Positions 5,206-31,631 of a stretch of 37,888 bases of DNA are shown one piece after another. A program made the translations under genes and the position numbers. The notes beneath the pieces were generated by a model. That model saw only the letters and a program-made list of their open reading frames with translations, did no database searches and was not told the DNA's origin. The stretch spans positions 1 through 37,888 of the forward strand of contig CALCOQ010000255.1 of the NCBI GenBank assembly GCA_937897005.1, in the 5' to 3' direction. This stretch comes from an uncultured euryarchaeote (lineage in GTDB: Archaea; Thermoplasmatota; Poseidoniia; Poseidoniales; Poseidoniaceae). Within the stretch, counting starts at the first letter, position 1; each line of letters opens with the position of its first letter.

Positions 5206-5314
5206 TAGTTGCCCGAGGCGCGGCCTGATTTGAAAAACAATCGTTTGCTTCACTTCTCAAAAGAGCCCTGTTAACCTGCGTATTGAAGACCGGTCAGGGG
5301 CTCGCAGTGCCATT

Positions 5315-5396
5315 GCGGAGATCGCATAGCCTGGTATTGCGCCGGATTTGAAATCCGGTGGTGTACGCCGCGGGAGTTCAAATCTCCCTCTCCGCG
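5315..5396 (+). tRNA. tRNA-Ser (anticodon UGA), class II with long variable arm, no encoded CCA
   Basis: Hand-folded cloverleaf. Acceptor stem GCGGAGA/TCTCCGC has 7 bp and the D stem has 3 bp. Anticodon stem is CCGGA/TCCGG with loop TTTGAAA (anticodon TGA). The variable arm is 13 nt, the T arm is GGGAG-TTCAAAT-CTCCC, and the discriminator is G. Confidence 0.9.
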
Positions 5397-5397
5397 C

Positions 5398-6594
5398 TCA
5401 TTCTCGCCTATTCTGAAGCGCTATGGCGGCCAAAATCATGGTGACCAGAGAGAGAAAAATCCCTGCAGCAGGGGTTGAATGGTCATCTTCATGATCTCCA
5501 TCTTCTGTCAGCAGAGTGTTGACATCGCCCACTAGATTCTCTGCAGGCCATTCATCACCGAGAAAAGCGATGCGTCTGTCTAATTCTTCATCAAGAATGA
5601 ATGTGATTGTATTGTGCCCAACGGTGTAATTGACTATCTCCACCTCTTCATGACCTGTCTCTTCCTCATGGGAATGAGAGTCTTCCGATTGATTTGAATC
5701 CGTTTCATTATCATCAGTCTCGTGACTATGAGAATGCGCCAGTGCAGAAGTTGGGTCAGGAAGTGCAGAGATATCCGAAATATTGGCTGCCCAAGCGATA
5801 TGTGTCATTTCATTCACCTCAAGAGAATCAATACCGACCGAAGATTCTTCCCAGACAGTATTGCTCATATTCCAAATATACAGCTTCCACCACCAAGAAT
5901 AGTCATCTGGAACATCGCTCCCATTGATTCCTTCAACGCTGTGCCCCCATTCCTCATGATACGAATAATTGAGTGAAACATTGCTTGTATTCAATGCCAT
6001 GGTCGTCAGATTCCATCCCGTGGAGTTCTCAGCCATCATATCAGCCATCACTCCATGCAACTCTGTGGAATTATCTGGATAAAGTATCGAAACATGATTC
6101 ATGCTGACTTCGGTATGTGATTCAATGAATGTCCTGTCAACAAGAATACCGAAATTAGACCATACCTGCTCCAAGTCTTCTCTAGTGCCGGAAAGGTGTG
6201 GCCAATCGACCATGTGAATATCTGCATATTCAGACATCCGTTCCTGAGTATCATACTCAGGGTCCAAAGTCACTGAGACGAAGTGCACATCATTCTCCAT
6301 CTTGTCGCCAAGGTCTGTCTCAACCTGCCTCAATTTTGAAGTGATCAAAGGGCAGGTGTCCGTACATCGAGTAAAAATAAAACTGACCACCACAAGGTCT
6401 CCTTCCAGACTGGAAAGAGTGAAATTCTCTCCATCTTGATCGATGAGGGTGAAATCACCAGCATTGCCATTGGCCAATGGAGTCCCGTTGTAGTGCTCAC
6501 CATGGATATCTTCGGATGGAGAACCTTCCAGACATCCAGCCATACTGGCAAACACCAACATCAAACCGATCAGAAGGCCACGAACAAGCAACAT
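5398..6594 (-). CDS. sco1: SCO1/SenC-family copper chaperone with a large sequon- and His-rich extra domain and a C-terminal TM anchor
   Basis: Thioredoxin-fold CxxxC motif (FIFTRCTDTCPL), a downstream conserved-His strand (NYTVGHNTITFILDEE), a lipobox-like signal (LMLVFASMAGC) and a C-terminal TM (IFLSLVTMILAAIAL-QNRRE). It is the last gene of the cox cluster. The start is uncertain: 6594, 6660 or 6675. Confidence 0.75.
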   Translation of the reverse strand: MLLVRGLLIGLMLVFASMAGCLEGSPSEDIHGEHYNGTPLANGNAGDFTLIDQDGENFTLSSLEGDLVVVSFIFTRCTDTCPLITSKLRQVETDLGDKMENDVHFVSVTLDPEYDTQERMSEYADIHMVDWPHLSGTREDLEQVWSNFGILVDRTFIESHTEVSMNHVSILYPDNSTELHGVMADMMAENSTGWNLTTMALNTSNVSLNYSYHEEWGHSVEGINGSDVPDDYSWWWKLYIWNMSNTVWEESSVGIDSLEVNEMTHIAWAANISDISALPDPTSALAHSHSHETDDNETDSNQSEDSHSHEEETGHEEVEIVNYTVGHNTITFILDEELDRRIAFLGDEWPAENLVGDVNTLLTEDGDHEDDHSTPAAGIFLSLVTMILAAIALQNRRE

Positions 6595-6647
6595 CTTGCC
6601 ACCTACTCCAAGGCCTTCGATATGAAAATTACCCTGATATGTTGCTC

Positions 6648-7031
6648 TTACTTGAGCCATGGAGGAAGACACCAACTTGGTAGTTCATCAACTCCCCCAG
6701 GATTGGAAAGGCCAATGCCATACAACATCAGCATCACGAAGAACAGTGGGAAGACTGCAGTCTTGGTGTAAATGAAAGGGTCGCCTTTCAAATGCATGAA
6801 AAAGCCTGCAATTCCGTAAACCTTGATCAATCCAACTCCAATGAGAATCGCCCAGGTCAACAGCTTTGCATTCTCCAATGTAGTATCAAAGACTTTTACC
6901 CAATCAATGTAAACCGCGGCTACTTCGATGACGGTCAATACCATCAGAGCGATGAAATTCCAGAAATAGATATCTTTGCCAGTCTTGTCCATTAGCCACT
7001 TTTCCAGTCCAGTTGCTGCATGTTCTCCCAT
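6648..7031 (-). CDS. coxD: small cytochrome oxidase subunit IV (prokaryotic COX4 / CoxD-like)
   Basis: A 127-aa protein with 3 TM helices and the GFFMHLKGD motif typical of prokaryotic subunit IV. It lies directly downstream of coxC. Confidence 0.6.
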   Translation of the reverse strand: MGEHAATGLEKWLMDKTGKDIYFWNFIALMVLTVIEVAAVYIDWVKVFDTTLENAKLLTWAILIGVGLIKVYGIAGFFMHLKGDPFIYTKTAVFPLFFVMLMLYGIGLSNPGGVDELPSWCLPPWLK

Positions 7032-7043
7032 TCAAACACCTCC

Positions 7044-8186
7044 TCAATACAGATAAAACGCGGGGAATATAGCAACCCAAGCCAAGTCAACGAAGTGCCA
7101 GTACAGGCCAAAGTACTCTATGCTCTGTGAGTTTTCAGGTTGCCAGCCATCATTGTGGGCCTTGAAACAGAAGAAGCAGAGGAAAATCAAACCAACGAAT
7201 ACGTGGAAACCGTGTGCCCCTGTTGAAACATAGAAGATGGAACCAGCCAGGCTGGATTTGACAGTGAAGTCTTCGCCATAGATGAGGTGCTCCCATTCAA
7301 TGAGTTTGAAAATCAGGAAAAGAGTCCCAAGAGCCAGTGTTGCCAGCAGATTGTTTCGAACTGCTCGACGTCGGTCTGGCATCCACATGCGGATCCACTT
7401 GTTCTTTGAAGGGATGAACTCCTGCGCCTTGGCTGACTTCAGGGCAAGCACAACGGTGTAGGAAGAGAGAATCAGAGCAAATGTGTTGATCGCTCCAGGT
7501 AATAAAGTCATGAAACTATGAGTCACGTATTCCGATGCGACTATGACATAATTCTCAGAACATGTGGGGAGGGCGCTTCCAGATTCAAGCATTGAATTAC
7601 ATTCTTCATTCCAGTGGGTCGACCACCCCATACGCATCCGTAGATACGAACTGAAGAATGAACCGAAGATCAACACTTCTGACATCAGGAAAACCCACAG
7701 TCCGACCTTGCGCACATCCTGACCCTTGTATGGTTGGCCAAGGGATTTCATCTCGTCCTTTCCATCATTGGGATAATCCTCTCTCCACCAGTTGAAAGCA
7801 CCGAGGAAGATGACCAACAATCCGAATCCAAGAATAGTGTACGACTCCACGAAACCATAGAGGAACAACATCGTTCCAACACCGATGATGATAGGTGAGA
7901 ATGAGCCGTGGTGGCCGTATGCATCATGGCCGTGGTCATCAGATCCATGATCATCGCCACCTCCTGCTTCGACTGAACTGTTGACCAGACCTGCTATCAC
8001 TCCCATCATTCCATAGAGTCCAATGAGAATGGTTGCTACACGACCTCCGGTCCAGATAGCATGTGAATGAGTAACTGAATACCCGATGAATGAAAGTGTA
8101 AGAACCCCACCCGCTACGCCAAGAAGCAACAGGCCAAGGCCGACACTACCCATCCATGGGCTTTCTTGATGTGAATTGGCGCTCAT
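7044..8186 (-). CDS. coxC: heme-copper (aa3-type) oxidase subunit III with an N-terminal extension
   Basis: Subunit III signatures are FGSFFSSYLRMR, GAHGFHVFVGLIF and YWHFVDLAWVAIFPAFYLY. It overlaps the coxA stop by 4 nt. Confidence 0.85.
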   Translation of the reverse strand: MSANSHQESPWMGSVGLGLLLLGVAGGVLTLSFIGYSVTHSHAIWTGGRVATILIGLYGMMGVIAGLVNSSVEAGGGDDHGSDDHGHDAYGHHGSFSPIIIGVGTMLFLYGFVESYTILGFGLLVIFLGAFNWWREDYPNDGKDEMKSLGQPYKGQDVRKVGLWVFLMSEVLIFGSFFSSYLRMRMGWSTHWNEECNSMLESGSALPTCSENYVIVASEYVTHSFMTLLPGAINTFALILSSYTVVLALKSAKAQEFIPSKNKWIRMWMPDRRRAVRNNLLATLALGTLFLIFKLIEWEHLIYGEDFTVKSSLAGSIFYVSTGAHGFHVFVGLIFLCFFCFKAHNDGWQPENSQSIEYFGLYWHFVDLAWVAIFPAFYLY

Positions 8187-10483
8187 TCTTTCGCCTCCTT
8201 TTCACCGATCATCCACATTTTCTTCACGCCCCTGATGAATGCTCCATCCCGATGAGCCTCTGTGTTGGCATCCTTCTGGATAGGAATCTCTGCAAATGAT
8301 GGAGTTGGTGGAGGTGAAGTCGTAGACCATTCAAGTGACCATCCACCCCAAGGGTCTGGTCCAGCGGGATCTCCACGCTTCTGGCTGTAAATCATGTTCC
8401 AAACCATGATCAATTGTGACAAACCGAAGACGAATGCCCAAATCGTGATTGAAGAATTCAATTCTCCATATCCGGATTCAATCGTATACGAATGAGTCCT
8501 CCGAGGCATCCCCATGATGCCAAGATTGTGCATTGGCCAGAAAGTGGCATTATAAGAGATGAAAGAAGTCAAGAAATGTATCAGTCCAAGTTTCTCATTC
8601 ATCTTACGGCCGGTCCATTTCGGGTACCAGTAATAGAATGCCGAAAACAGACCGAACACCACTCCTCCAACGAATACATAATGGAAGTGAGCGACCACGA
8701 AATATGTGTCATGGAAGTACATATCCAATCCAGCGACTGGGAAGAACATTCCAGAGATTCCTCCCAATGTGAAAGTGATCAGGAATCCTAAAGCCCACAA
8801 AGTATGGGTCTTGAACACCAAGGCCCCCCCCCATAAAGTCGCCAACCAATTGAAAATCTTGATTCCAGTTGGAATCGCCACCAACATGGTGGCTGCCATC
8901 ATCAAGAACCTCAATTGTGGATCCATTCCACTGGTCAACATATGATGCCCCCAGACGATGAAACCAACAACGCCGATACCCGCCATGGCGTAAACCATTG
9001 ATTTGTAGCCGAATATTGACCTTCTGGCGCTGGTGGCAAGCACTTCAGAGACCACTCCAAAAGCAGGAACAACGACCACATACACTTCAGGATGACCAAA
9101 GAACCAGAACAAGTGTTGGAACAGAACCGGATCTCCGATATTGGTCGCAAAGAAGACAGAGCCAATGGTTCGGTCGAGGAACATCATGACCACCCCGATG
9201 ATGAGTGCTGGAAGAGATAGGAAGAGCATGAACATCGAGATTAGGATACTCCAAGAGAACAGAGGCATCTTCATCCAACTCACCCCATGACCGCGCATGG
9301 TCAGGAAGGTGGTGATGAAGTTGACACCAGACAGGGTCGATGAAGCACCCAACATTATCATTCCAGCAATAAACAAAGTAGTACCCGGATTGGAAGACAT
9401 GTCCCCGCCTCCAGTTGAAGTTGCATATGGGGGATACATGACCCAGGTGATATCTCCAGCCTCTCCACTGAAGATACCCGCATACAACAAGAATGCTGCG
9501 AATGGCAGCATCCAGAATCCCAGTGCATTGACACGCGGGAATGCAAGGTCCTGAGCACCTATCTGAAGTGGAACGATGTAGTTGGCGAAGCCTGCTATCA
9601 TTGGCATTGCCGCAAGGAAGACCATCGTTGTCCCGTGCATGGTGAAGTACGAATTGTATTCTTTTTCAGTCAAGAAGTCGTTCATTGGCGTAGCGAGTTG
9701 CAACCTGAACAACAAGGCCAATAGCCCTCCTACCAAGAAGAACAGTAATCCAAAGTTGAGATAGAGCAACCCCACTCCTTTGTGGTCGGTAGTCGTCAAC
9801 CAGCCTTTCAACCAACCCCAGAAATTGCCCATGTTGAACCCTTCAGGATTACGTGAATAGAACACATACATCGCTGCCAATCCCATGAGAGTGAGGACCA
9901 GAAGAATAGCGGTCATCAGCACGACCATGGCTCGCTTGGCGTCAACGGTTTCTTCAATCGGTCCAGCATTGAGGCCTGCAACCTGATATGTTGCGCCGTT
10001 GTATCCATCACCAGAATTACCGGTTACGCCATTGGCATTTCCATTCACTGCATTACCCCAAAGGGTGAATTCAGCAACCTTGCTATCGTCAGCGGGAGCA
10101 GTCCATGAGACTTCCCATGAACGTTGGTCATTGCCAAGTTCAGTGTGTGTCAATCCACCTTCCACCACCTGGACCAATGTTTGATCGAAATCCAAGGTTC
10201 CACCATTGATCAACAGTCTGAAACCACCCATATTGGCAGTCTCGGATGCACCTGGGATATCGGAATTTGAAACCGTGATCGTCAGATTGTATACTGCACT
10301 TGCATTGAAAGTATCTGGAAGCCCCGAAATGGATACTTCGGTTCCACTCTCCTTGGTATGGCAGAAACAACCACTGTCATCAGCAGTGCTTCCAATGCCG
10401 CCTGGTGTCGCTTGGAACTGAGGAGTGGCTATCAGGGCGATACCGATTATCGCCAACAGGAGAATCGCTCTTCGACGCATCAA
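8183..10483 (-). CDS. coxA: heme-copper oxidase subunit I fused to a ~225-aa N-terminal extracytoplasmic domain plus an extra TM
   Basis: Subunit I motifs are TTDHKGVGLLYL, FFGHPEVYVVVVP, HHMLTSGM and VVAHFHYVF, with 12 or more TM helices. The N-terminus has an RRR signal-like peptide and a soluble domain. It overlaps coxB by 4 nt. Confidence 0.9.
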   Translation of the reverse strand: MMRRRAILLLAIIGIALIATPQFQATPGGIGSTADDSGCFCHTKESGTEVSISGLPDTFNASAVYNLTITVSNSDIPGASETANMGGFRLLINGGTLDFDQTLVQVVEGGLTHTELGNDQRSWEVSWTAPADDSKVAEFTLWGNAVNGNANGVTGNSGDGYNGATYQVAGLNAGPIEETVDAKRAMVVLMTAILLVLTLMGLAAMYVFYSRNPEGFNMGNFWGWLKGWLTTTDHKGVGLLYLNFGLLFFLVGGLLALLFRLQLATPMNDFLTEKEYNSYFTMHGTTMVFLAAMPMIAGFANYIVPLQIGAQDLAFPRVNALGFWMLPFAAFLLYAGIFSGEAGDITWVMYPPYATSTGGGDMSSNPGTTLFIAGMIMLGASSTLSGVNFITTFLTMRGHGVSWMKMPLFSWSILISMFMLFLSLPALIIGVVMMFLDRTIGSVFFATNIGDPVLFQHLFWFFGHPEVYVVVVPAFGVVSEVLATSARRSIFGYKSMVYAMAGIGVVGFIVWGHHMLTSGMDPQLRFLMMAATMLVAIPTGIKIFNWLATLWGGALVFKTHTLWALGFLITFTLGGISGMFFPVAGLDMYFHDTYFVVAHFHYVFVGGVVFGLFSAFYYWYPKWTGRKMNEKLGLIHFLTSFISYNATFWPMHNLGIMGMPRRTHSYTIESGYGELNSSITIWAFVFGLSQLIMVWNMIYSQKRGDPAGPDPWGGWSLEWSTTSPPPTPSFAEIPIQKDANTEAHRDGAFIRGVKKMWMIGEKEAKE

Positions 10484-11433
10484 GCACCACCGCCACAGGA
10501 CTCCAATTTACTGTCTGGATTCGCCACCACAGTGATTTGTCCTGTCATATATGCATGCCTCATTCCGCAATATTCTGCACAGACGACATCAAAGGTTCCA
10601 GTTTCATATGGATGGAAATAAATCATCGTTTCGATGGTTGGGACAATATCTTCCTTGACCCCCCATTCAGGTAAGAACAATGCATGAAGAACGGCATCAG
10701 CTTCACCCAACCTTTCACTGGTCATGGTCATCTTGATGTCTCTATCACAAGGAACGAAAACCTCTCCAGAACTTGCAGTCTGGGCGGAATACCTGACGTA
10801 GGAGTAGACTTGCAAGCCGTCTTCATCAGTGATGGTCAAGGAAAACATCTCGTGCAGGTCCACGATGGTGTTCTGGGTTGCTAAGCCTGAACTGATATTG
10901 AATTGGCCATTGGCTGGTCCATTGGTCCATATTGCCGTGAGATTGACATCCATGGTACTGGTTGAAACCAGAATCGTGCCTTCTGAGACACTCAAGTGGA
11001 TTGGATATGGAAGACCATCGGCCACTTCTTCGATGACTATCGGTTCAGTGTAGGTGAATGCCCAGTTCCATTGAGTTGCTGTGACCTCGACGATGAATGC
11101 TTCCTCGTCACTGGGGGGGTTTCCCCATGCATCATACAAGGATGTCCAAGACAATACACAGAGCCATGCTACAAGAATCGATGGAACAACTACCCAAGCG
11201 GTCTCCAATCGAAGATTATCTCTCTCTTTTGGAAATGTTCCCGGCTCGAGTTTCTCCAGAGTCGATTCATCCACCATTCCCTGACGGAATCTAAGAATTG
11301 AATAAATCATCCAAACAAAAACAATCAATCCCACGATAATTGACCAGAACATGAATTGGTTGTACAGAGTCTTCCAGGCGAGTTCCTCGGTTGCCATAGT
11401 ACTCCCAATCGCTGGCGAGCGACAGCCGCTCAT
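10480..11433 (-). CDS. coxB: heme-copper oxidase subunit II (CuA cupredoxin) with an internal insertion
   Basis: Two N-terminal TM helices. The CuA ligand set is AVLHALFLPEW ... CAEYCGMRHAYM. An alternative start is the Met at 11397. Confidence 0.85.
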   Translation of the reverse strand: MSGCRSPAIGSTMATEELAWKTLYNQFMFWSIIVGLIVFVWMIYSILRFRQGMVDESTLEKLEPGTFPKERDNLRLETAWVVVPSILVAWLCVLSWTSLYDAWGNPPSDEEAFIVEVTATQWNWAFTYTEPIVIEEVADGLPYPIHLSVSEGTILVSTSTMDVNLTAIWTNGPANGQFNISSGLATQNTIVDLHEMFSLTITDEDGLQVYSYVRYSAQTASSGEVFVPCDRDIKMTMTSERLGEADAVLHALFLPEWGVKEDIVPTIETMIYFHPYETGTFDVVCAEYCGMRHAYMTGQITVVANPDSKLESCGGGA

Positions 11434-15946: not shown

Positions 15947-16006
15947 ATGAGTCTATGCAAGTGACGGAGGGGGCTTATTGATGAATTGAAACTTCACCCA
16001 CGCATC

Positions 16007-17419
16007 ATGGCGACCGGACTGTTGACGCCAGAATGGCCCGCTTTCCTTTCTCTTCTGAGCGCGGCATTCCTTCCATTCTGGCCGATGATCCATATGCGAT
16101 TTGATGATGAGCATCATCCCATCTGGGGTAAGATTGACCGGATTCTTCCGTGGTTACCTGGTGTCTTCATCGGATTGGCGCTCCTCTTCGATATCATTGC
16201 TCACCTCAGCTACAACACCGGTCATCAGCGTGTGATTGCCAGACTGGATGCAGAAATGTCTCTATTCAGCAGATTGGCGGTCTCCTTGTCTGGGTGGACA
16301 TCATGGGCCTTGCTGCTGATGCTCGGACTCGGACTACATCTTGCAGTAACTTCCACAGTTCTCGATGAAGGAGGGAATATTGCAGGAGATAGCCACCGTA
16401 TGCATGATGGAGTCCTCATTCTGTTCGGAATATTCTGGGTGATGTTGTTGTTTGCACTGTTACCTCCTGACCCATTTCCATCTGCTGATGGTTTCATCAC
16501 TCCGGAAGAAGTTCCCTTTCCTCCCTCATTGTGGAGTGTCATGTTGATGGCTCCCACAATATTGCTTGCTGGTTGGCTGATTGGTTTTGGCATTCTCCAT
16601 CTCGCAGATGTGACTTGCCCCGCCAAGTGGCCCGAAACCATCTCCAGACCTCATTCTGGAACTGGATGGTTCGTGGCTCTGCCAATCGTCGCTATTCTAT
16701 TTGGTTTCTCGATGGTCGATCTGAATACCATGTCTGATGGAATGGCGATGTCTGACCTCATTCTAGATGCAACACACGGAACACGTACGGCTTTCATGTT
16801 GGCTTTCTCAATCACCCTGGTATTGGGTAGTTGTGCACTTCAGGTAGCGGCTGTCTCTGTTCATAGAACGAGAATAGGCAGCGATCGGTGGAAGGGGCTT
16901 GTGGCAACATTCAGTCACTCCCTTTTCTGGATACTGATCGGTGGATGGTGCTTGCTGGCAGGACTCCCTGGAGTTGATGCCTCATGGGGGGCAATCGCCC
17001 TGTTGGCTAGACTCGCAACCCCCTTGATATTGATAGGAGCTGTTGGGATGCTACTGCCATTGATAGGATTTGATGAACGTCCAAGAGCTGAGATATGGGG
17101 TTGGACAATGATGCTTATGCTAGGTGCTCCTGCTCTTGCACTATGGGAGCCGCGTTCGGCTTTTCTCGCCTTGACACTGCTTCCAGCATTGTCTTTCACT
17201 GCAATCATTCCACCATTGTTTGAGACTGATGTCCGACTTTCCTCGGAAAGAAGGAAAAGATGGATATGGATAATTCTAGTGACTGAAACCCTGATCTTCA
17301 TCAGTTTAGTCCTTTTTGCCATCGATAGCATTGGATTGATTGCAGTTCTCCCCGGATTGATGTTCAGCACCCTGATTCCGGGAATGTTGGTACATGCATG
17401 GCCAAATCATGTTGATTGA
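16007..17419 (+). CDS. hypothetical polytopic membrane protein (about 12 TM)
   Basis: A long ORF made almost entirely of hydrophobic helices. I prefer the ATG at 16007 to the TTG at 15986. I recognised no family. Confidence 0.55.
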   Translation: MATGLLTPEWPAFLSLLSAAFLPFWPMIHMRFDDEHHPIWGKIDRILPWLPGVFIGLALLFDIIAHLSYNTGHQRVIARLDAEMSLFSRLAVSLSGWTSWALLLMLGLGLHLAVTSTVLDEGGNIAGDSHRMHDGVLILFGIFWVMLLFALLPPDPFPSADGFITPEEVPFPPSLWSVMLMAPTILLAGWLIGFGILHLADVTCPAKWPETISRPHSGTGWFVALPIVAILFGFSMVDLNTMSDGMAMSDLILDATHGTRTAFMLAFSITLVLGSCALQVAAVSVHRTRIGSDRWKGLVATFSHSLFWILIGGWCLLAGLPGVDASWGAIALLARLATPLILIGAVGMLLPLIGFDERPRAEIWGWTMMLMLGAPALALWEPRSAFLALTLLPALSFTAIIPPLFETDVRLSSERRKRWIWIILVTETLIFISLVLFAIDSIGLIAVLPGLMFSTLIPGMLVHAWPNHVD

Positions 17420-17487
17420 CGGCAATTTCAGAAAGGTCGTTCAATACGCCTCAAGATTTCTATCATTCCCTAACTATTATCAATGCA

Positions 17488-17880
17488 ATGAATGGCATGG
17501 TCGCTCGGGAATCCAGTATTCCCAGGATGGGATGGAAGATGGGAAGAGCCTTCAGAGAAGGAATATCAGATGAGAAAAAGGTGCGATTTCATCAAAGAAT
17601 ATCGCAGATGATGAACATTGGTGGACGGGCAAGAAGAAGTAAAGCGGACGAAGGTCCCCGTGTCAGAGTGCCAGCGATGATCACTGTTGAAGACGAAGAA
17701 TGGATCTGGGAACAGGTGAGTGCTGACGTACTGGCCTCACTATCTCATAGATTGATGATCCAAGATGCTGACGGTAACGCTCAGCCCCTAGGGTGTACTG
17801 CAGATTTCGATACCGCTCTAGCATTAGCCAAGGAAATGGCAAGTGAAGGTGAAGTCATCCTCATCGAACCCAATCTCTGA
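17488..17880 (+). CDS. hypothetical protein
   Basis: The ORF has coding-like composition. I chose the ATG at 17488 because the track start at 17416 is a TTG overlapping the previous stop. No motif recognised. Confidence 0.4.
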   Translation: MNGMVARESSIPRMGWKMGRAFREGISDEKKVRFHQRISQMMNIGGRARRSKADEGPRVRVPAMITVEDEEWIWEQVSADVLASLSHRLMIQDADGNAQPLGCTADFDTALALAKEMASEGEVILIEPNL

Positions 17881-17919
17881 ACCCACGGGTTCAATAGGAA
17901 GCAGGATTCTCCATCTTCG

Positions 17920-18204
17920 ATGATTAAGGAATTGATTCCATTAACAGAAGAAATGCTGCCATATTCACCTGAGGAAGGATTGAATGTCGCGGTGGACGGG
18001 CAACCTGCCCGATGCTGGAAATCATTCCGAGGATGGGGGAGTGAAAAGATAGTGATATTGTTTGATGAGGACCATCACAGATGGAGCGATGGGTTCACGA
18101 CCAAGTACTACGAATTCAGAGCACCGGGTAAGATGCATTGGGGTTTCGACGGTGGGGTGATGGAAATCTTCGTCATTCCTTCAGAAGGTACTGAAGAGGA
18201 ATGA
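17920..18204 (+). CDS. hypothetical small protein
   Basis: A 94-aa ORF in the same orientation as the upstream gene. No motif recognised. Confidence 0.4.
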   Translation: MIKELIPLTEEMLPYSPEEGLNVAVDGQPARCWKSFRGWGSEKIVILFDEDHHRWSDGFTTKYYEFRAPGKMHWGFDGGVMEIFVIPSEGTEEE

Positions 18205-18218
18205 AGTCGTGTTTCGCA

Positions 18219-18422
18219 TCAAAAGATGCCGAAGAACCACTCAAGGACGCCATGATTGGCAAGATAAACAACTGCTGACAGAATGATACATGCAGCATAT
18301 ATCTGACCTTTGGTGAAATGCCATGCATCCTCCGATTCCTCATCGAAATATCGAATCAGACCAGCAGCTTGTTGGATGCCACTGCCATCCTTCTTCTTGC
18401 TTTTCTTCACCGCCATGGTCAA
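18219..18422 (-). CDS. secG: preprotein translocase subunit Sec61-beta (archaeal SecG)
   Basis: The basic N-terminus, the conserved AAGLIRYFDEE motif and a single C-terminal TM (IYAACIILSAVVYLA) fit the archaeal Sec-beta pattern. Length is 67 aa. Confidence 0.75.
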   Translation of the reverse strand: MTMAVKKSKKKDGSGIQQAAGLIRYFDEESEDAWHFTKGQIYAACIILSAVVYLANHGVLEWFFGIF

Positions 18423-18475
18423 CCAGCGTGCCGGCGAAATGCCATCCCTATTTCAACGCGACGGGAATCCGGCAA

Positions 18476-19492
18476 CTACTCTTCTCCGTCTGTTGTCAGG
18501 TCAATATATGGTATTTCAGCCTCAGAACCCACTTTCTCAAGCGTCAACAGGTCCTCAGCTTCTGCACCCGTCTCCTGTGGAAGAGATTCGTCCACTTCCG
18601 CCACAGAGTCCTCGAATTCCTCTAGAGCCGGAGCGGAGGCGAAGACTTCCTCGAATTCAACATCTTCAGCACTGACCGAATGAAAAATCACCGCTTCATC
18701 CTCTTCCTCAAAGACTTGATGCCTGACTTCCTTCTCAGGATCTGCTTCGATGAGAGCAGTGTCGATTCTTGCAAACGCTCTCTCTAATGCTGCGGCATTG
18801 TCCTCATGTAGTGCTTTGGAGGAGACGTCTACATCTCTCAATGCTCTCTCTATCGCTGCTGCAGCAGAACGCCTATCGAAATCAGGAAATTCATCCTTGC
18901 CTAAACCAACCAGTTTCTTCTTCATCTCAGCTATTCTGCTCTCTCTCTTCTCAATCTCAAGCCTCAATGCAGTCCTGCACTGATTCATATGTCGATTCCA
19001 TTCTTCTGAATGGGCCTTGGTATCCATACCTGTTACTCTTGCCCATTTCTTTCTTCTCATCGGCTCCCACAATGGACGCCCCATGGCAGAACAAAGGTCC
19101 AGAACCAGTCTACACCTCCTTTCTAATGGCCCCCTGATGATTATCTGATTGAGGAATGACGATGCTAACAATCCCAAACCCCAGTATGGCCTGCTCGCAA
19201 CTTCAACCCAAACAACCTCGTCCCCAAATTCAATTCTCCATCTCTGTTCATCAAAACCCGGTAACTCCACGATCCTTGGTGGAGCATGAGCGCCGAATAC
19301 TCGCATCAACATTGCCATGACATCTCCAAGGATGATCGAACCACTGGCTGAAGGATGGTTGGCTGGACGGAGAATGCCTGTTTCTCCATTCATTTCTATT
19401 CCAAATTCATCTTTGGCCTTTCTGACCTGTGCCCACAGTACAGTCTTCACTGCATCGAGTGTGGATGGAGGTGGAGTCTCGTCCTCTGGCAC
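18476..19492 (-). CDS. hypothetical protein with a coiled-coil segment and highly acidic C-terminal third
   Basis: A 338-aa ORF with a coiled-coil-like LRLEIEKRESRIAEMKKKL segment and an acidic tail (EEEDEAVIF...EFEEVF...EEFEDSVAEVDE). No family recognised. Confidence 0.5.
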   Translation of the reverse strand: MPEDETPPPSTLDAVKTVLWAQVRKAKDEFGIEMNGETGILRPANHPSASGSIILGDVMAMLMRVFGAHAPPRIVELPGFDEQRWRIEFGDEVVWVEVASRPYWGLGLLASSFLNQIIIRGPLERRCRLVLDLCSAMGRPLWEPMRRKKWARVTGMDTKAHSEEWNRHMNQCRTALRLEIEKRESRIAEMKKKLVGLGKDEFPDFDRRSAAAAIERALRDVDVSSKALHEDNAAALERAFARIDTALIEADPEKEVRHQVFEEEDEAVIFHSVSAEDVEFEEVFASAPALEEFEDSVAEVDESLPQETGAEAEDLLTLEKVGSEAEIPYIDLTTDGEE

Positions 19493-19594
19493 ATCCTAAG
19501 GACACTGATGATATTCATCATGCTTGTGCCTAAAAATTTGATTCTTAGGGCCATATTCAAATCCGCGAACCTTCACGTCGCCTCCGGTGTGTTG

Positions 19595-20194
19595 ATGGCC
19601 AAGAAGAAATCTCCCGCAAAGAAGACTGGTGGAGCAAATAGGTCTGCAGCAGCGAAGAAAGCAGCGGAGACGCGCAAAAAGAATGCGGCTGCTAAGAAGA
19701 AAGCGGAAGAAGCAGCCGCTCGAAAGAGGAAGGCCACAGCGAAGAAAGCGGCAGAAACCAGACGAAGGAATGCTGCTGCCAAGAAGGCGGCGGCCGAAAA
19801 GAAGAAGGTGGCGGCGGCAAAGAAGGCGGCTGAAACATCCAAGAAAAGAGCGGCAGCGGTTGCGAAGAGGAAGAACGATGCAAAGAAAGCCGCGGCTACG
19901 GCTAGAGCAAAGAAGATTGCTACTACAACTCCAGCAATTCCCAAAGAAAAGAAAGAAACTCAAAAAAAGGCCGCAGCAAAGAAAACTCCAGCCAAGAAGA
20001 GTCCTGTAAGAAAGAAGGCAACTCCGAAAAAGGCTGCAGCAAAGAAAAGTCCTGCAAGAAAGAAGGCAACTCCGAAAAAGGCTGCAGCAAAGAAAACTCC
20101 AGCCAAGAAATCGGCTCCTGATGAGCGGGCGAAACTCAAGGGCCCCAGCGTCCAAGACATCATCGATCGTGCGAAGCTAAACAAAACAAATTGA
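19595..20194 (+). CDS. Lys/Ala-rich histone-H1-like / HC2-AlgP-like repeat protein (candidate nucleoid protein)
   Basis: Starts at ATG 19595 (MAKKKSPAKK...). Three AKKAAET(R/S)(K/R)(K/R)xAAA repeats are followed by KKATPKKAAAKK(S/T)PA(R/K)K repeats. An SD-like GGTG lies about 6-9 nt upstream. The long ORFs on the opposite strand are mirror artefacts. Confidence 0.6.
   Translation: MAKKKSPAKKTGGANRSAAAKKAAETRKKNAAAKKKAEEAAARKRKATAKKAAETRRRNAAAKKAAAEKKKVAAAKKAAETSKKRAAAVAKRKNDAKKAAATARAKKIATTTPAIPKEKKETQKKAAAKKTPAKKSPVRKKATPKKAAAKKSPARKKATPKKAAAKKTPAKKSAPDERAKLKGPSVQDIIDRAKLNKTN
19964..20107 (+). repeat. imperfect 48-nt tandem repeat (about 3 copies) inside the Lys/Ala-rich gene
   Basis: Units 20012-20059 and 20060-20107 are identical over their first 37 nt (aagaaggcaactccgaaaaaggctgcagcaaagaaaa). 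A more diverged copy precedes them at 19964-20011. Confidence 0.8.
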
Positions 20195-20389
20195 AGCGCA
20201 CGAATCCTTCATGGACCGTAGGTTCAATGCAAAGGTATGCCAAGAAGGAAGTACGGCCGTTTAAGGAAGGTCGTTGAACTTCCACCAAAAGGGAATTGTT
20301 CACGCTGTAGAACCGGAAAGTTCTGCCCTATCACCGGTCACGTCGGCAATCAAGTCTCACCCTCAAGAAAATGGCAAGGCCCAGACAAA

Positions 20390-21520
20390 TCAATCAAACA
20401 CATCAGGAAGAGGGATTGAATCAGCCTCGATGATCGGAACTTCTTCCACGGGGTTCTCATCGGCTTCAAGTGCCTTCTTTTTCTCTTCAAGGGCATCTCG
20501 AAGTGTCTGTGCTCTCCTGTAGACTTCCCGCAAGGTCTGATCGCCAATCTCCAGATACACTCTGGTGGTTGAGATGTTGGCATGTCCCAGCAATCGCTGA
20601 ATCGAAACCAGATCCGCACCCCTCTCTAGTAATCCGGTAGCGAAATTGTGGCGTAACACATGCGGAGTCAGCCTCCCTCGAGGTAGACCTGCTTGCTTAC
20701 CCAGTACATTCATCAATTTCTGGATTGAACGTGGTGTCAGCCGACCTCCCCTGTTATTGAGAAGTAATGCGCTATCCTCGTGTTTGTTACGATCTTCTCT
20801 TGAGGGATTCCACAGATTGATCGCCCTGATCGTCTTATCAGTGAACAGGACCATTCTGTCTTTGTTACCTTTACCTCCAACAACGCGAGCACTGTAATCT
20901 TCAACATCGATATCATATTCATCAAGATTACACAATTCACTCACTCGCATCCCAGTATCCAACAAGATGGTGATGATGATGTTGGCAACTGGGTTCTCCC
21001 AGTTCGCTGCGGTTCGTAGAACAATCTCCAGTTCATTTCTGTTCAATGTGCGGGGTAGCCTCTTACCGCGGTGTGGACGACTGATGTGGTCTGGCATGCT
21101 ATGGCCAAGCCAACGCAATAAATGCCCCGCAGCAGCCAATCTGGCATGTACTGTAGACGGTTTCAATTGATTCAGGGATTGCTGCCAAAGTTCCAATCTA
21201 CCGGTATGAGTGGCGATTCGGATATGCAATTCCTCAACAGTGAGGGAAACCGCCTGGTCTCTAGACAAGATGATCTCGCCTGGTAAGGCAGTCTCTATCA
21301 AACGTCGAACCCCAATAAGATACGATTTGCTGGTGTTCTCACTCTTACCTTCTGTCTGAAGTTGTTGTTGCCAACATCCCAACCAAGGTAGTGAAGATAT
21401 TCGAGCCAAACGCTGTGGTAGATTTGGGGGAGGGGGGTCTTTCGATACCCCGTTATCCTTATCGGCATCCAAGAATGACTGGCGCCTCTCATCAAGGCCT
21501 CTGAATCCCCTATCGCGCAT
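20390..21520 (-). CDS. xerA: tyrosine recombinase (XerA/XerC/XerD-like) with N- and C-terminal extensions
   Basis: Catalytic signature DTGMRVSEL (R), GKGNKDR (K), HVLRHNFAT (HxxR), LLGHANISTTRVY (H, Y). Confidence 0.85.
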   Translation of the reverse strand: MRDRGFRGLDERRQSFLDADKDNGVSKDPPPPNLPQRLARISSLPWLGCWQQQLQTEGKSENTSKSYLIGVRRLIETALPGEIILSRDQAVSLTVEELHIRIATHTGRLELWQQSLNQLKPSTVHARLAAAGHLLRWLGHSMPDHISRPHRGKRLPRTLNRNELEIVLRTAANWENPVANIIITILLDTGMRVSELCNLDEYDIDVEDYSARVVGGKGNKDRMVLFTDKTIRAINLWNPSREDRNKHEDSALLLNNRGGRLTPRSIQKLMNVLGKQAGLPRGRLTPHVLRHNFATGLLERGADLVSIQRLLGHANISTTRVYLEIGDQTLREVYRRAQTLRDALEEKKKALEADENPVEEVPIIEADSIPLPDVFD

Positions 21521-24048: not shown

Positions 24049-24143
24049 GTTCGTGAATCGGCTATCCAACCCCCCTGTTGCTTGTTCTTATTGGGCGAGC
24101 CTTCAAAGGGTCCCAGCGGCGCCTGATTATCACAGGTCAGAAG

Positions 24144-26288
24144 ATGACAGCCAACTCGACATTGACCGTTGCCGCCCTGAAGGCGCTATGTAGGGAGAAG
24201 GAATTATCCCTAGCGGGAAGAAAGGCCGAACTTGTGAATCGGTTGTTGAAATATGGAGCGAGTAGAGAAGAGATCGGACTTCAACCATTGAGTGAAGAAA
24301 CTCTTGAAGAAGATGACATCGTTGAGGATGAAGAAGGATTGTTACTCCTTGAAGACGATGAGGATGTTGCTGTTGAGGCAGAATCCGAGACAGAAGAGGA
24401 TGAAGAGGTTCTCGAAGCAGAAGTGTTTGAAGCGGAAATGATTGATGATGACGTGATTGAAGCAGATGTGATAACTGCCGATGTCAAGGAAAAGGTTCGA
24501 GAAGATTCAGCGGACCGCACCACCGTCTCCAGTGCCCGCAGTAGATTCGTTTCGGATGGGCCCGTGTTTGATTGGAAGAAGAGTGGGGCTCTGGTGTTGA
24601 CTCTCGTGCTTCTCGGTGCGGGAGCATGGTGGTGGTTCAGCCTTGAGGCTGAGCCCTTCACTCCAGATCCTCTACGTCATGGAGATAGAATGGAATTCGC
24701 GGTAACGGGAGGAGGGCTCGTGGCAACCGAGGATTACGCTTCCAAGGTCTTCGAATGGTTCGGTTCAGAAGATGACGTGTGTGCATTGAATGTGGTATTC
24801 TCAGGCAGTGGTAGTATTGCAGTGACTGAAGGAGGTGCTGCTGATATCTCTGGAGAAATGAATGATGACAGATTAGGTTCAGTCAGTCAGGTTGGAGAAA
24901 ATGGATATTCCTGGCTGACTATGGAAAAGGAGTTACTGTATGATTTTGATGATGTACAGATTTCTCAAAGTGAAAAATCAAGTCAACTTGGATGTCTGGA
25001 GATGCCTTCCGTCAATGCCCGTATGGGAATTGATTGGACAGAATGGGTCGAGCTCAGCAGTGAGAAAAGTATTCGCTCTGAATTTGGCTACGAGTTGACA
25101 CACCCGGATGGGCATCTGCAGGGGGACTTCACAACCTTCGGGTTGAGCGGTTTCTTGGATTCATTGGATTCGGTTGGACTTGGTGCTTCGATGACCTTTG
25201 CACCATTACAGATCCATGAAGTGCTAGGGAACACGATGATTGATGAAAATGCAGCAGGAAATGTTTCAGGCTGGTCCTGGCAAGTGACTGGAAGTGAAGA
25301 GTTCGGCGAAGAGACAGCATGGAAGATACTCTTCAGGAACAAGGATCTAGAGGATAATTGCTTAGGCCATGCAACCATACATATCCTTGCAACACCATCC
25401 TCTCCTTGGGCGATCAGTCAATCCACAGACCTGTTGATAACTGGAGAAGATTCGAGTGATTGTGGGACATTGCAAGAGATATTGGGCGACTATGCGATGC
25501 CTGATGGAAGATTGGAGATGAAGATGACGATAGAGAAGACCAACATCAAACGCGGGGAACATCTAGTTGATCTAGGATACTCGTATGATTCCAAACCGGA
25601 TATCTCTTCCACAAGGCCCCCGTCTTCAGAGATGCTGGATTGGCATCTTGACAGGCATATGCCCGATGTATCCAGCAAACGCAGTCACACTCTTGAGATG
25701 GCTGTCAGTTGTGTTGGAAATGCCTCGAGCGGAGGTAACGAGGCTGAAGTCGCTCTACGAGACTATGATGCATACATCTGGAGAGCACGCGATAATCGCT
25801 CAGATGAGGGAGTGACAGAATGGAATCTCAGTTGGTTGGCAAGTGATGACACCAGTGGATGGGTGAAATTCGATGTCTCCGGAACTGGCGGAAGTGAAGG
25901 AAATTGCACATATATCGATTCAGGGGCATATGATGAGGAAGCACCTGATCATAACCGAGATGCCATTCCCGAGACTCCATCTCTAGGTTGGATGGAGACT
26001 GCAAGATGGTTGAATGGTGAGACCTTTCCAGAATTCAGTGGCGCCACAGGAATGGCTGCCATCAACGGTGAATGGAGGAGCGACATGAGACTCGGGGTGT
26101 TGGTAGCAACAACAGGTATTGAATTGCCCTCATCACTTGATTTCCTGCCGCTTAATGATGCGGGCAGAGTGACGATTGATGGAGTCAGGACCTGGGAAGA
26201 AGGAGATTGGTCCCACACCTTCTCATTCGTAGCAGATGCCAGCGATGGTGGAATGGTTGGCTGGTCTCATATACGTTCCAGTGACTGA
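24144..26288 (+). CDS. membrane protein with N-terminal SAP/HeH (Rho_N-like) motif, acidic linker, single TM and ~540-aa ectodomain
   Basis: LTVAALKALCREKELSLAGRKAELVNRLLKYG fits the SAP helix-extended-helix consensus. An Asp/Glu-rich linker follows, then a TM (ALVLTLVLLGAGAWWWF) and a large acidic domain. I chose the ATG at 24144; the track start at 24078 is a non-ATG start. Confidence 0.65.
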   Translation: MTANSTLTVAALKALCREKELSLAGRKAELVNRLLKYGASREEIGLQPLSEETLEEDDIVEDEEGLLLLEDDEDVAVEAESETEEDEEVLEAEVFEAEMIDDDVIEADVITADVKEKVREDSADRTTVSSARSRFVSDGPVFDWKKSGALVLTLVLLGAGAWWWFSLEAEPFTPDPLRHGDRMEFAVTGGGLVATEDYASKVFEWFGSEDDVCALNVVFSGSGSIAVTEGGAADISGEMNDDRLGSVSQVGENGYSWLTMEKELLYDFDDVQISQSEKSSQLGCLEMPSVNARMGIDWTEWVELSSEKSIRSEFGYELTHPDGHLQGDFTTFGLSGFLDSLDSVGLGASMTFAPLQIHEVLGNTMIDENAAGNVSGWSWQVTGSEEFGEETAWKILFRNKDLEDNCLGHATIHILATPSSPWAISQSTDLLITGEDSSDCGTLQEILGDYAMPDGRLEMKMTIEKTNIKRGEHLVDLGYSYDSKPDISSTRPPSSEMLDWHLDRHMPDVSSKRSHTLEMAVSCVGNASSGGNEAEVALRDYDAYIWRARDNRSDEGVTEWNLSWLASDDTSGWVKFDVSGTGGSEGNCTYIDSGAYDEEAPDHNRDAIPETPSLGWMETARWLNGETFPEFSGATGMAAINGEWRSDMRLGVLVATTGIELPSSLDFLPLNDAGRVTIDGVRTWEEGDWSHTFSFVADASDGGMVGWSHIRSSD

Positions 26289-29900: not shown

Positions 29901-30011
29901 CGGATTCAGGGTTATTGTACTGATTTCGAACTTTGTGATGATTCTCCCCACCATAATGCCGACATAACCTTGAATGGTGTGCAATGCACCCCTTCGCGAA
30001 GGGGGGGGCGT

Positions 30012-31199
30012 ATGAGTGAGCAACTTGCAGTGAGTGGGGTTGAACAATCTTCTCAGGAGCCTCTCCTCGATTCACAAACTGAAGAGAAGAGTTCTGTACT
30101 GTTCGTTTCTGCTTCAGATGTTGAACGGCATACCTACTGTCCATTGTCCTGGCATTTGTCTCGTCAAGGCGTGAATGCTTCAGGAGAAGGTGTGCAAGAA
30201 GGTATCACCAAACATTCTGAAATCAATGAGCAGATGCTTGAGTATCAAAATGCTCGTTCAGACTTGAGGCGTCAAATAACCATCTGGACCTGGTGGTTCG
30301 GTATCATCATCGCATATTCCATCGATGCTGTGGCGTTCTTTTCATTGACAAGTGCATTCCCCCCAACTGACCTCGCCAGATATCTGGTGTTACTCGCGTT
30401 AGTCTGGCTGGCCCTTTCTATCACATTGATCTTGGTTCCATGGAGAGAATGGTTCGGATGGGACACTCCAATACAATCTCTGGAGAAGGGCCTCAAGGTC
30501 TGGGTTGAAGAACATTCGATCACGAGTGTCATTCAGGGTCCTGACTTCGAGGGAGGGTGGACCAAAGGAGGGCGAATCGAGGCTTCTTTGATGCTAGGAG
30601 CGATTGTGTTGACAATCCACGGAGTAGCTTTGTGGGGGGTGAAGAACCGAGAACAGGCTGGGTTCATTCTATTGATGGTCGCAATGCTCTGGACTCTTTT
30701 CTCCTCATGGAGGTTACAGCAGGCACTGGTGGCTGATGTTGTGGCAAATCACTCCATTGGAGAGACAGGACTGAAAGATGGTTCAGAAGTTGTGTTCAGT
30801 GATGAGGGTGGAGATGCGGGGATTCTCATTGATGAAGAACTCGGATTACGAGGGAAACCAGACCAAATCATCGTTGTTGATGGTGATTTCATTCCACTTG
30901 AACAGAAGACTGGCAGGATTCCAAAGAGCCCTTTTGCATCGCATAAGATGCAATTATTGGCATATCTGAAATTGATTGATGCCAACACCTCAATTCGTCC
31001 ACCTTATGGGGTACTGAGATATGGCAAGGATGAGTTGCATCAAATTGATTGGGACGAAGAATCTGAACAGACATTGATAGACTCGGTGCATGAAATTCAA
31101 CGATTGATGCGTGAAGGAGGGGCGACACGGAATCATGAGAGACCTGGAAAGTGTAAGAATTGCTCACGTAGACACGGTTGTTCAGAATCACTCGTCTGA
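30012..31199 (+). CDS. Cas4/DUF83-like PD-(D/E)xK nuclease with 4-Cys cluster motif, interrupted by a four-helix transmembrane insertion
   Basis: Motifs in ORF-track numbering: HTYCPLSW (C57), GITKHSE, LGLRGKPDQIIV (D298), PLEQK (E311/K313), QLLAY and CKNCSRRHGC (CX2CX5C). Four hydrophobic helices lie between residues ~103 and 247. The ATG at 30012 follows a G8 tract. Confidence 0.7.
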   Translation: MSEQLAVSGVEQSSQEPLLDSQTEEKSSVLFVSASDVERHTYCPLSWHLSRQGVNASGEGVQEGITKHSEINEQMLEYQNARSDLRRQITIWTWWFGIIIAYSIDAVAFFSLTSAFPPTDLARYLVLLALVWLALSITLILVPWREWFGWDTPIQSLEKGLKVWVEEHSITSVIQGPDFEGGWTKGGRIEASLMLGAIVLTIHGVALWGVKNREQAGFILLMVAMLWTLFSSWRLQQALVADVVANHSIGETGLKDGSEVVFSDEGGDAGILIDEELGLRGKPDQIIVVDGDFIPLEQKTGRIPKSPFASHKMQLLAYLKLIDANTSIRPPYGVLRYGKDELHQIDWDEESEQTLIDSVHEIQRLMREGGATRNHERPGKCKNCSRRHGCSESLV

Positions 31200-31259
31200 A
31201 TGCGTCTTTCCAGATATTGCTCTCGCAACTGTGATAGAGGTGCTCATCATCAGAGGTTC

Positions 31260-31631
31260 ATGCAAGAGTATTGCATCAAACTACCAGACAAACCCGGCCA
31301 GATGGCTGACTTGTGCGAAGCATTGGCTGCAGAAAATATCAACCTCCTGACCGCCACTGCATTGACAGCCACAGGTGCAGTTGTTGCTCTGGTCACCGAT
31401 GATGAAGTAGGAACCACAGGAGTTCTAGACCGCCTTGGACATGAGTATCATGTCAGTGAAATACTGTTGGTGACAATGCCTCACCAACCTGGTTCGTTGG
31501 CAGCATTATCGCGTACAATGGGTAATGCTGGCATCAATATCAATTCAATATACATCATGAGCAAGGATGATGACAAGGCAGTCATCGCTTTCACTGCTGA
31601 CGATGTAGAGGCAGCACGTGAAATGATTTGA
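31260..31631 (+). CDS. ACT-domain protein (tandem ACT-like halves)
   Basis: The two halves are IKLPDKPGQMADLCEALAAENINLL...VALVTDD and VTMPHQPGSLAALSRTMGNAGININSIYI...AVIAFTADD. I chose the ATG at 31260; the track start is 31200. Confidence 0.65.
   Translation: MQEYCIKLPDKPGQMADLCEALAAENINLLTATALTATGAVVALVTDDEVGTTGVLDRLGHEYHVSEILLVTMPHQPGSLAALSRTMGNAGININSIYIMSKDDDKAVIAFTADDVEAAREMI

Follow-up and report, generated by a model that had tools for sequence, protein, structure and literature searches.

Canonical Cas4 nucleases (PF01930/COG1468), represented among known structures by SSO0001 (4IC1), Pcal_0546 (4R5Q), 8D3L and 7MI5, are about 200 amino acids (aa) long, and their CRISPR-associated members adjoin cas1, cas2 or an array of clustered regularly interspaced short palindromic repeats (CRISPR). 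Here, we describe a 395-aa protein which has the ordered motifs of this family in common, finds its best structural matches among them and carries four predicted transmembrane (TM) helices inside the nuclease fold. It is encoded on a stretch of 37,888 nucleotides (nt), referred to below as the window, from an uncultured member of the Poseidoniaceae (contig CALCOQ010000255.1). H62 and D99 of SSO0001 are separated by 37 residues, as opposed to 216 residues and four hydrophobic helices between H68 and D284 of the window protein, an interval which the initial annotation of the window, made from its letters alone, had put at about 215 aa. Furthermore, in contrast to CRISPR-associated Cas4, the window nuclease lacks such a genomic context and scores below the cut-off of the cas4 equivalog model TIGR00372.

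The solo-Cas4 of Methanosarcina mazei is likewise euryarchaeal, encoded apart from cas operons and equipped with four conserved cysteines. It binds a [4Fe-4S] cluster and forms a soluble oligomer of ~318 kDa without membrane segments (PMC12501428). The same PD-(D/E)xK subfamily fold is found in Dna2, AddB, MGME1 and RecE, which, however, are soluble enzymes; Dna2 and AddB act together with helicases or as fusions to them, and a cluster is missing from MGME1. The closest non-archaeal relatives of the C-terminal half (E ~1e-22 to 1e-24) are bacterial proteins of ~170–185 aa, for instance from Anaerolineaceae (P0244–P0268), which consist of one helix and half a Cas4. They have the membrane helix, a Y-x-D linker, G(K/R)PD, ExK, QxxxY and C-X2-C-X5-C in common with the window protein and are also labeled “Cas4” in the databases, but their only helix is N-terminal and the N-terminal Cys/His part is missing.

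Two membrane systems which are not homologous to the window protein offer likenesses of concept or layout. The E. coli anti-phage nuclease SNIPE resembles it in concept alone, in that its nuclease domain is kept on the cytoplasmic side of the membrane by a tether, which prevents self-cleavage and puts the enzyme in place to cut DNA during injection (PMC13190303). SNIPE, however, is a GIY-YIG nuclease with DUF4041 and a single, poorly conserved N-terminal anchor, the membrane-targeting region being the least conserved part of the protein (PMC13190303), and is a patchily distributed defense gene, whereas the window nuclease has an internal, highly conserved multi-helix insertion and behaves as a lineage core gene. 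ComEC likewise handles DNA at the membrane as a single polypeptide with a nuclease domain and a polytopic membrane part, but it carries its nuclease outside, as a metallo-beta-lactamase domain, and has a dedicated competence domain as its channel.

The ordered Cas4 motif set listed in the initial annotation, including the CX2CX5C triad, is complete and almost without exception fixed. In an alignment of 22 homologues from marine group II (MGII) archaea, C43, G64, H68, D284, E297, K299, Q314, Y318, C381, C384 and C390 are invariant, and the same residues remain so among 82 sequences including non-MGII Thermoplasmata, apart from E297 and Q314 (at least 90% conserved). The four cluster cysteines, C43 and the three of the C-terminal triad, are invariant in every alignment made. 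The residue numbers of the initial annotation exceed the present ones by 14 because they were counted from an upstream TTG at 29970, from which a longer reading of the open reading frame (ORF) is possible; the closest homologue (P0001), 99% identical, is likewise 395 aa long. The first 26 residues are modeled with a predicted local distance difference test (pLDDT) score below 50.

Profile searches place the protein in the family. The Pfam family Cas_Cas4 (PF01930, gathering score 22.7) matches with 40.2 bits (E 4.9e-10), covering aa 280–390 only, which correspond to profile positions 53–158 of 160, and PDDEXK_1 (PF12705, gathering score 22) scores 31.3 bits on the intact protein. When aa 89–256 were deleted in silico, so that the N- and C-terminal parts were joined as envisaged in the initial annotation, the Cas_Cas4 score rose to 43.8 bits and that of PDDEXK_1 to 37.4 bits, with the latter match crossing the junction into the N-terminal motif-I helix. 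Five out of five homologues treated in the same way, taken from subgroups with two, four and eight helices, match PDDEXK_1 end to end (from position 1 or 2 to 247 of 247). In addition, a family profile pairs the N-terminal VSASDLERHAYCP-LSW with VSPSIINDFEYCPRLLW of the Cas4 structure 4R5Q, a correct register in a stretch which alone is not significant. PADLOC matches lie in the C-terminal half and are nearly all Cas4 models or Cas4-Cas1 fusion models (listed as Cas1b/Cas1g), alongside the generic PD-(D/E)xK model DruK and one marginal Cas8b model (E 0.002). In sequence searches of the PDB, whether started from the protein, from its joined halves or from the family profile, all Cas4 matches were weak (E 0.02–1.5). 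A match to human Timeless over aa 301–354, around QLLAY, ranked above Cas4 in these searches (E 0.004–0.065) and was judged to be due to chance.

The predicted structure points in the same direction. A first AlphaFold model, built from the 22-sequence alignment, was poor (pLDDT 62.7; best Foldseek E 0.09). A second one, built from 82 diverse family members, reaches a pLDDT of 78.6 and a predicted template modeling score of 0.67, with pLDDT values of 88–97 over aa 271–370 and of ~80–90 over the four membrane helices. Its top Foldseek match is the type I-C Cas4 8d3l_J (E 2e-5; root-mean-square deviation (rmsd) 3.9 Å over 146 columns; probability 1.00), and the Cas4 part of a Cas4-Cas1 protein, 7mi5_A, superposes with an rmsd of 2.0 Å over 119 columns (probability 1.00). 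The nuclease domains of Dna2, AddB, MGME1 and RecE are matched as well (E 4e-5 to 4e-3), which puts Cas4, Dna2 and MGME1 among the best structural matches. By profile, motifs and predicted fold, the protein is thus a member of the Cas4 family. By analogy with Cas4, Dna2 and the M. mazei solo-Cas4, it is predicted to carry an Fe-S cluster and to be a metal-dependent DNA-cleaving enzyme.

The hydrophobic segments placed by the initial annotation at nt ~30276–30710 (the latter being aa 233) were found at 30276–30719, as aa 89–113, 121–143, 188–209 and 215–236, with 19-residue Kyte-Doolittle means peaking at 1.57–2.73. In hydropathy, charge pattern, even number and confidently modeled AlphaFold helices they behave as TM helices. 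The count of lysine plus arginine (K+R) per 15 residues across 247 four-helix family members is 3.1–3.4 in the N-terminal flank and 3.9–6.5 in loop 2-3, as opposed to 0.6–1.4 in loop 1-2 and 0.9–1.1 in loop 3-4; for the C-terminal flank, enrichment is confined to the non-MGII forms (3.4, compared to 1.1 in MGII). This distribution fits a topology with both termini inside, which would also follow from the expectation that an Fe-S enzyme without a signal peptide resides in the cytoplasm. If both halves of the nuclease must share one side of the membrane, an even number of helices is needed, a point already made for the window protein by the initial annotation and borne out across the family. Between the N-terminal cysteine and motif II, 302 full-length members carry two (10 proteins), four (247) or eight helices (42), and the count is even in 299 of the 302. 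Three single proteins depart from this and look like artefacts of the threshold or of motif parsing: a count of three in an MGII protein whose type otherwise has four helices, a count of seven in which one helix was probably overlooked, and a count of zero due to failed motif parsing.

Sequence comparison indicates that the inserted helices are copies of one repeated hairpin module. In the 331-aa relatives, hhalign pairs the first hairpin with the second at a probability of 98.1% (E 7e-14), where scores of membrane helices are inflated by compositional bias and the register of the alignment is nonetheless specific, and the eight-helix proteins consist of four hairpin units. The first helix of each hairpin carries a mid-membrane polar residue, D105 and H203 in the MGII proteins as opposed to Asn in most relatives. 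D105 in TM1 is invariant, as are E190 and H203 in TM3. A crude hairpin hidden Markov model missed many divergent hairpins and was replaced by helix counts restricted to the insert, and a Pfam search with the insert alone gave no significant family (best E-value 2.2). Within MGII, mean pairwise identity is highest in TM4 (75%), the most conserved segment of the protein, compared to 57% in TM1, 68% in the C-terminal and 57% in the N-terminal half of the nuclease. It is therefore suggested that the membrane helices, being as conserved as the enzyme, do more than anchor it. Such constraint would be unexpected of a mere anchor, and the helices may serve oligomerization, partner binding or gating.

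Long helices connect membrane and enzyme in the second model. One helix (residues 59–114) leads from the motif-I histidine straight into TM1, and another (residues 213–252) extends TM4 back into the cytoplasmic part, followed by a strand at 259–263 and the Y262-x-D264 linker motif, which is at least 90% conserved in the 82 sequences. The predicted cytoplasmic loop 2-3 contains the motifs PWR (P143–R145, invariant in MGII and lying across the boundary between TM2 and the loop) and FxGGW (179–183); its residues 170–185 have pLDDT values below 50, and it is much shorter (~18 aa) in non-MGII relatives.

Taken as a whole, the results support the structural reading of the initial annotation, and we consider it likely that the protein is a CRISPR-independent integral-membrane nuclease of the Cas4/Dna2 type with a four-cysteine Fe-S site, which faces the cytoplasm and acts on DNA ends at the membrane. 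In the proposed arrangement, two TM hairpins would separate the motif-I helix, which bears H68, from the strand with D284 that opens the catalytic sheet, and their even helix number would keep both nuclease halves in the cytoplasm, where they are predicted to reassemble as one domain. With the motif-I helix leading into TM1 and a cytoplasmic helix prolonging TM4, a two-helix stalk would hold the active site ~3 nm below the membrane, as judged from the 21 helical residues that separate H68 from TM1. Here, the enzyme would cut or resect DNA ends on the inner side of the membrane, most likely those of entering virus or other foreign DNA, and the tether would limit it to membrane-located DNA, away from the chromosome. 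Processing of foreign DNA at its point of entry is the most likely role and is put forward tentatively; it is favored because its logic has been demonstrated for the unrelated SNIPE.

The architecture is widespread. A word-indexed search returned 582 homologues, mostly full length; nearly all of the best 120, which were listed, measure 381–447 aa, and the few named ones among these belong to Candidatus Poseidoniaceae or marine Euryarchaeota. An exhaustive profile search yielded 1247 representatives at E<=0.001, the weak end of which includes canonical soluble Cas4, and 539 at E<=1e-10. Named members come from Thermoplasmata, Thermoplasmatales, Methanomassiliicoccales, Candidatus Thermoplasmatota and Candidatus Poseidoniia, the last of these with two-helix forms, and their database labels are always “Cas4,” “Dna2/Cas4 domain-containing” or hypothetical. 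Surveying archaeal and viral genomes, as proposed in the initial annotation, gave 410 loci in the scan of species-representative genomes and no viral copies or relatives in that of IMG/VR; the 80 loci which were listed and fetched are essentially all from Poseidoniales. Two typical MGII copies with 51% identity to the query lie in assemblies named as bacterial (L020, titled Yoonia sp., and L048, titled Deltaproteobacteria bacterium), and these contigs are probably mis-binned or contaminants. The comparisons indicate that the design is conserved across Thermoplasmatota and vertically inherited.

The initial annotation was not aware of any described membrane-integrated Cas4-like nuclease. The protein is no singleton, since a large family of this kind is labeled “Cas4” in the databases. 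In the Cas4 phylogenomic survey by Hudaiberdiev et al. (2017; PMC5704561), the word “transmembrane” does not occur and the single occurrence of “membrane” is unrelated. A literature search aimed at membrane or transmembrane Cas4, with arCOG and COG annotations outside its range, returned no description; its nearest items, SNIPE and a Mycoplasma Cas4-like/DEDD fusion, are both unrelated. As far as could be determined, the architecture is therefore undescribed, while the family is already deposited under an automatic “Cas4” label.

By its genomic context, the window nuclease is a solo-Cas4, encoded outside cas loci and mobile elements. The gene order is FAA hydrolase, rps8e, srp19, nuclease, ACT-domain gene, ilvE (class IV aminotransferase) and polB (family B DNA polymerase), in agreement with the housekeeping neighbors S8e, SRP19, ACT, aminotransferase and polymerase reported in the initial annotation. 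As that annotation had also stated for cas1, cas2 and CRISPR arrays, neither a CRISPR array nor any cas gene is present in the window; furthermore, at 14 related loci from five lineages the genes called likewise include no cas gene, and PADLOC found no match in three flanking proteins. The ACT-domain gene was considered as an operon partner and rejected: its abutting start is not conserved (gaps of 25–55 nt in L011 and L012) and the neighbors differ across lineages, so that it is probably not a functional partner. Upstream of the nuclease ORF, a G8 tract lies 4–11 nt 5′ of the ATG and therefore outside the ORF, in a Shine-Dalgarno-like position; it is not conserved, the orthologous locus L012 having GGGAG instead.

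Elsewhere, the gene is embedded in other, lineage-specific surroundings. Among the 80 fetched loci, where the gene has a fixed place, rpS2 lies divergently upstream in 71 and a 185-aa lipoprotein gene convergently downstream in 73, with a ~940-aa CARDB protein next in 65. The 331-aa type of Thermoplasmata is directly preceded on the same strand, at a distance of 24–57 nt, by a gene for a TPD (PF14811) protein in five out of five loci, and RNase HII is encoded nearby in two of them (L007 and L010). The TPD protein displays a TPD...ESK pattern which resembles PD-ExK, and a PDB search with it gave no match; we take PF14811 to be the CDIN1/C15orf41 family of predicted nucleases. In the eight-helix type, the gene upstream, which overlaps the nuclease start in all three loci, encodes a giant surface protein of at least 994 aa that is anchored to the membrane at its C-terminus. 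The surface protein of L009 contains two lamin-tail domains (LTD) by Pfam (PF00932, E 5.5e-25), and those of L093 and L094 are homologous in their C-terminal parts and have at least one LTD-like repeat. LTD domains are found in extracellular nucleases such as ExeM (PMC6085458).

The window gene itself belongs to a minor type. Close relatives (71–85% identity) occur in only three species-representative genomes (L011, L012 and L014), with the same synteny as in the window, and the same three Poseidoniaceae metagenome-assembled genomes (MAGs) carry an ordinary MGII copy of ~50% identity next to rpS2 on other contigs (window type/main type: L011/L018, L012/L021 and L014/L017). In a neighbor-joining tree without support values, the window type is nested within MGII as sister to the clade of the co-resident copies, a position that fits a lineage-specific duplication. 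Two copies per MAG could also arise if all three bins were contaminated. The window paralogue keeps all catalytic and cluster residues. At L014, a 302-aa gene (4969–5877) is located between srp19 and the nuclease gene, and both genes have the same leader peptide and upstream sequence (MNGMYCAPKERGDMVSEQ and MNGVQCTPSRRGGRMSEQ, respectively); the 5′ region therefore appears to have been duplicated around an insertion.

What the enzyme does at the membrane is less firmly indicated than what it is, and the roles suggested in the initial annotation (defense at the envelope, uptake, repair) are speculative. A housekeeping role in DNA-end processing at the membrane, be it repair, recombination or the segregation and resolution of chromosomes, fits the core-gene behavior almost as well as action on entering DNA, and we accord it a modest chance. 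It would account for the fixed place next to rpS2 across Poseidoniales, for the presence of the gene throughout Thermoplasmatota and never in a defense island in the MGII loci, and for the putative second nuclease (TPD) and RNase HII beside the 331-aa type; moreover, two of the structural relatives, Dna2 and MGME1, act as repair nucleases. However, no known repair pathway requires a polytopic membrane nuclease, the neighborhoods examined contain no helicase or ATPase partner, and the neighbors vary between lineages, so that no conserved operon backs a particular pathway. Uptake of DNA or foraging, in which an oligomer would use its hairpins to form or line a conduit and its cytoplasmic nuclease to process the DNA brought in, much as ComEC unites channel and nuclease, is unlikely. 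Large ring-like oligomers are known from soluble Cas4, such as the M. mazei solo-Cas4 of ~318 kDa (PMC12501428) and SSO0001, described as toroidal in the title of Lemak 2013, and the membrane helices, with their invariant mid-membrane D105 and H203, are conserved like the catalytic domain. The LTD-bearing surface proteins overlapping the gene start in the eight-helix loci would also fit, LTD being found in ExeM (PMC6085458). Against uptake, two-helix members exist, the LTD partner is confined to one subgroup, and neither ATPase nor pilus genes are adjacent. In the most far-reaching form, a ring assembled in the manner of soluble Cas4 toroids would place a conduit of hairpins, with their mid-membrane Asp, His and Asn residues, over a ring of active sites, and would take in or intercept DNA at the membrane and process it on entry, with LTD surface proteins as partners in some lineages; we regard this as a long shot.

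The remaining alternatives fare worse. A sensor of membrane stress, activated by a perturbation such as infection to degrade cellular DNA in abortive infection or programmed death, would make sense of a conserved membrane module with polar residues and of the lineage-specific duplication, and a precedent for a membrane-embedded defense sensor is Kiwa (10.1101/2023.02.26.530102). A suicidal effector is, however, hard to reconcile with a syntenic, phylum-wide core gene, and there is no conserved toxin-antitoxin or regulator partner, which makes this quite improbable. Even less can be said for a genuine Cas4 of CRISPR adaptation acting in trans with cas1-cas2 elsewhere, to which the database name “CRISPR-associated protein Cas4” and the PADLOC models matching the C-terminal half would point. 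The absence of cas genes and arrays from the window and from the genes called at the 14 other loci, the TIGR00372 score and the housekeeping synteny all speak against it, and we deem it very improbable. The chance that the unusual architecture reflects a chimeric or misassembled ORF, a concern raised by the initial annotation, or that the insert is a soluble helical bundle, is next to negligible. Hundreds of full-length homologues, the 410 genomic loci, the conserved synteny and a GC content of the gene equal to that of its flanks contradict the former, and the hydropathy of up to 2.7, the even repeat number and the positive-inside pattern contradict the latter.

Several points weigh against a membrane-tethered Cas4-type nuclease which meets foreign DNA at the membrane. 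The protein scores 56.1 bits against the NCBIfam model TIGR00372 (cut-off 65), which makes it a family member that this curated standard does not recognize as a true CRISPR Cas4. The segment with the cysteine triad has a pLDDT of just 63–70 in the second model. In the M. mazei solo-Cas4, the cluster cysteines are dispensable for activity (PMC12501428), and their conservation is therefore no proof of a catalytic role of the cluster. The topology is derived from hydropathy and charge counts rather than from a trained predictor. Finally, a gene so widely distributed, so fixed in its synteny and under such strong purifying selection is unusual among defense genes and fits a housekeeping function at least as well. 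The coordinates of the gene, its parts and its neighbors are listed in Table 1.

Table 1. Positions of the nuclease gene, its predicted parts and neighboring genes (window positions unless a related locus is named).
Feature	Position	Strand	Remarks
Membrane-inserted Cas4-family nuclease ORF	30012..31199	+	ATG 30012, TGA 31197-31199; 395 aa plus stop
G8 tract	30001..30008	+	4-11 nt upstream of ATG; Shine-Dalgarno-like position
N-terminal tail, aa 1-28	30012..30095	+	variable (27% mean pairwise identity), predicted disordered
N-terminal part of nuclease fold, aa 29-88	30096..30275	+	SASDxERHxYCPLSW; covered by PDDEXK_1 once insert is deleted
Cluster cysteine C43 (HTYCPLSW)	30138-30140	+	in SASDxERHxYCPLSW motif
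H68 on motif-I helix GxxKH	30213-30215	+	G64/H68 in GITKHSE
TM hairpin 1 (predicted)	30276..30440	+	TM1 aa 89-113, short outside loop, TM2 aa 121-143
Predicted cytoplasmic loop 2-3, aa 144-187	30441..30572	+	K+R-rich
TM hairpin 2 (predicted)	30573..30719	+	TM3 aa 188-209, short outside loop, TM4 aa 215-236
Predicted cytoplasmic continuation of TM4 helix and linker, aa 237-270	30720..30821	+	AlphaFold
C-terminal part of nuclease fold, aa 271-395	30822..31196	+	Pfam, NCBIfam and PADLOC Cas4 matches
Motif II GKPD, D284 (GKPDQ)	30861-30863	+	
Motif III ExK, E297-Q-K299	30900-30908	+	
QLLAY, Q314/Y318 (QxxxY)	30951-30965	+	
Cysteine triad C381/C384/C390 (C-X2-C-X5-C)	31152-31181	+	CKNCSRRHGC
ACT-domain gene	31200..31631	+	abuts nuclease stop (TGA-ATG); syntenic neighbor in the paralogue's locus
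TPD (PF14811) gene, L007	6200-6976		
TPD (PF14811) gene, L008	4513-5289		
TPD (PF14811) gene, L010	6233-6943		
TPD (PF14811) gene, L091	3197-3943		
TPD (PF14811) gene, L092	3211-3972		
Giant surface protein gene, L009	3870-7001		
Giant surface protein gene, L093	1-4023		
Giant surface protein gene, L094	1-4068		

Other parts of the window are of interest in their own right. A tyrosine recombinase gene (Phage_integrase; 20390–21520, minus strand) lies beside a block of ORFs without Pfam match (15986–20194), one of which (19355–20194) encodes a Lys/Ala-rich repeat protein from tandem repeats at 19636–20110; the region 15986–21520 may be an integrated element, and no tRNA gene is adjacent to it. 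A 736-aa protein encoded at 24078–26288 has an N-terminal SAP DNA-binding domain (PF02037, E 1.4e-8) as its sole recognizable feature, which is unusual in an archaeon. An aerobic respiration cluster with SCO1/SenC, COX3, COX1 and COX2 (5398–11433, minus strand) fits an aerobic heterotrophic MGII archaeon.

MGII archaea are among the most abundant microbes of the surface ocean, uncultured, and their machinery for DNA handling and antiviral defense is little characterized. A widely conserved, CRISPR-independent membrane Cas4 would put this enzyme family at a new place in the cell and be a clear case of TM hairpins placed inside a soluble enzyme fold, in a modular count of two, four or eight. It gives the question of solo-Cas4 function a concrete candidate answer, DNA processing at the membrane, and flags thousands of “CRISPR-associated Cas4” database labels as misleading. 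If the ring and conduit reading were true, the protein would be the first candidate for an apparatus of DNA translocation or entry surveillance in Thermoplasmatota, including MGII.

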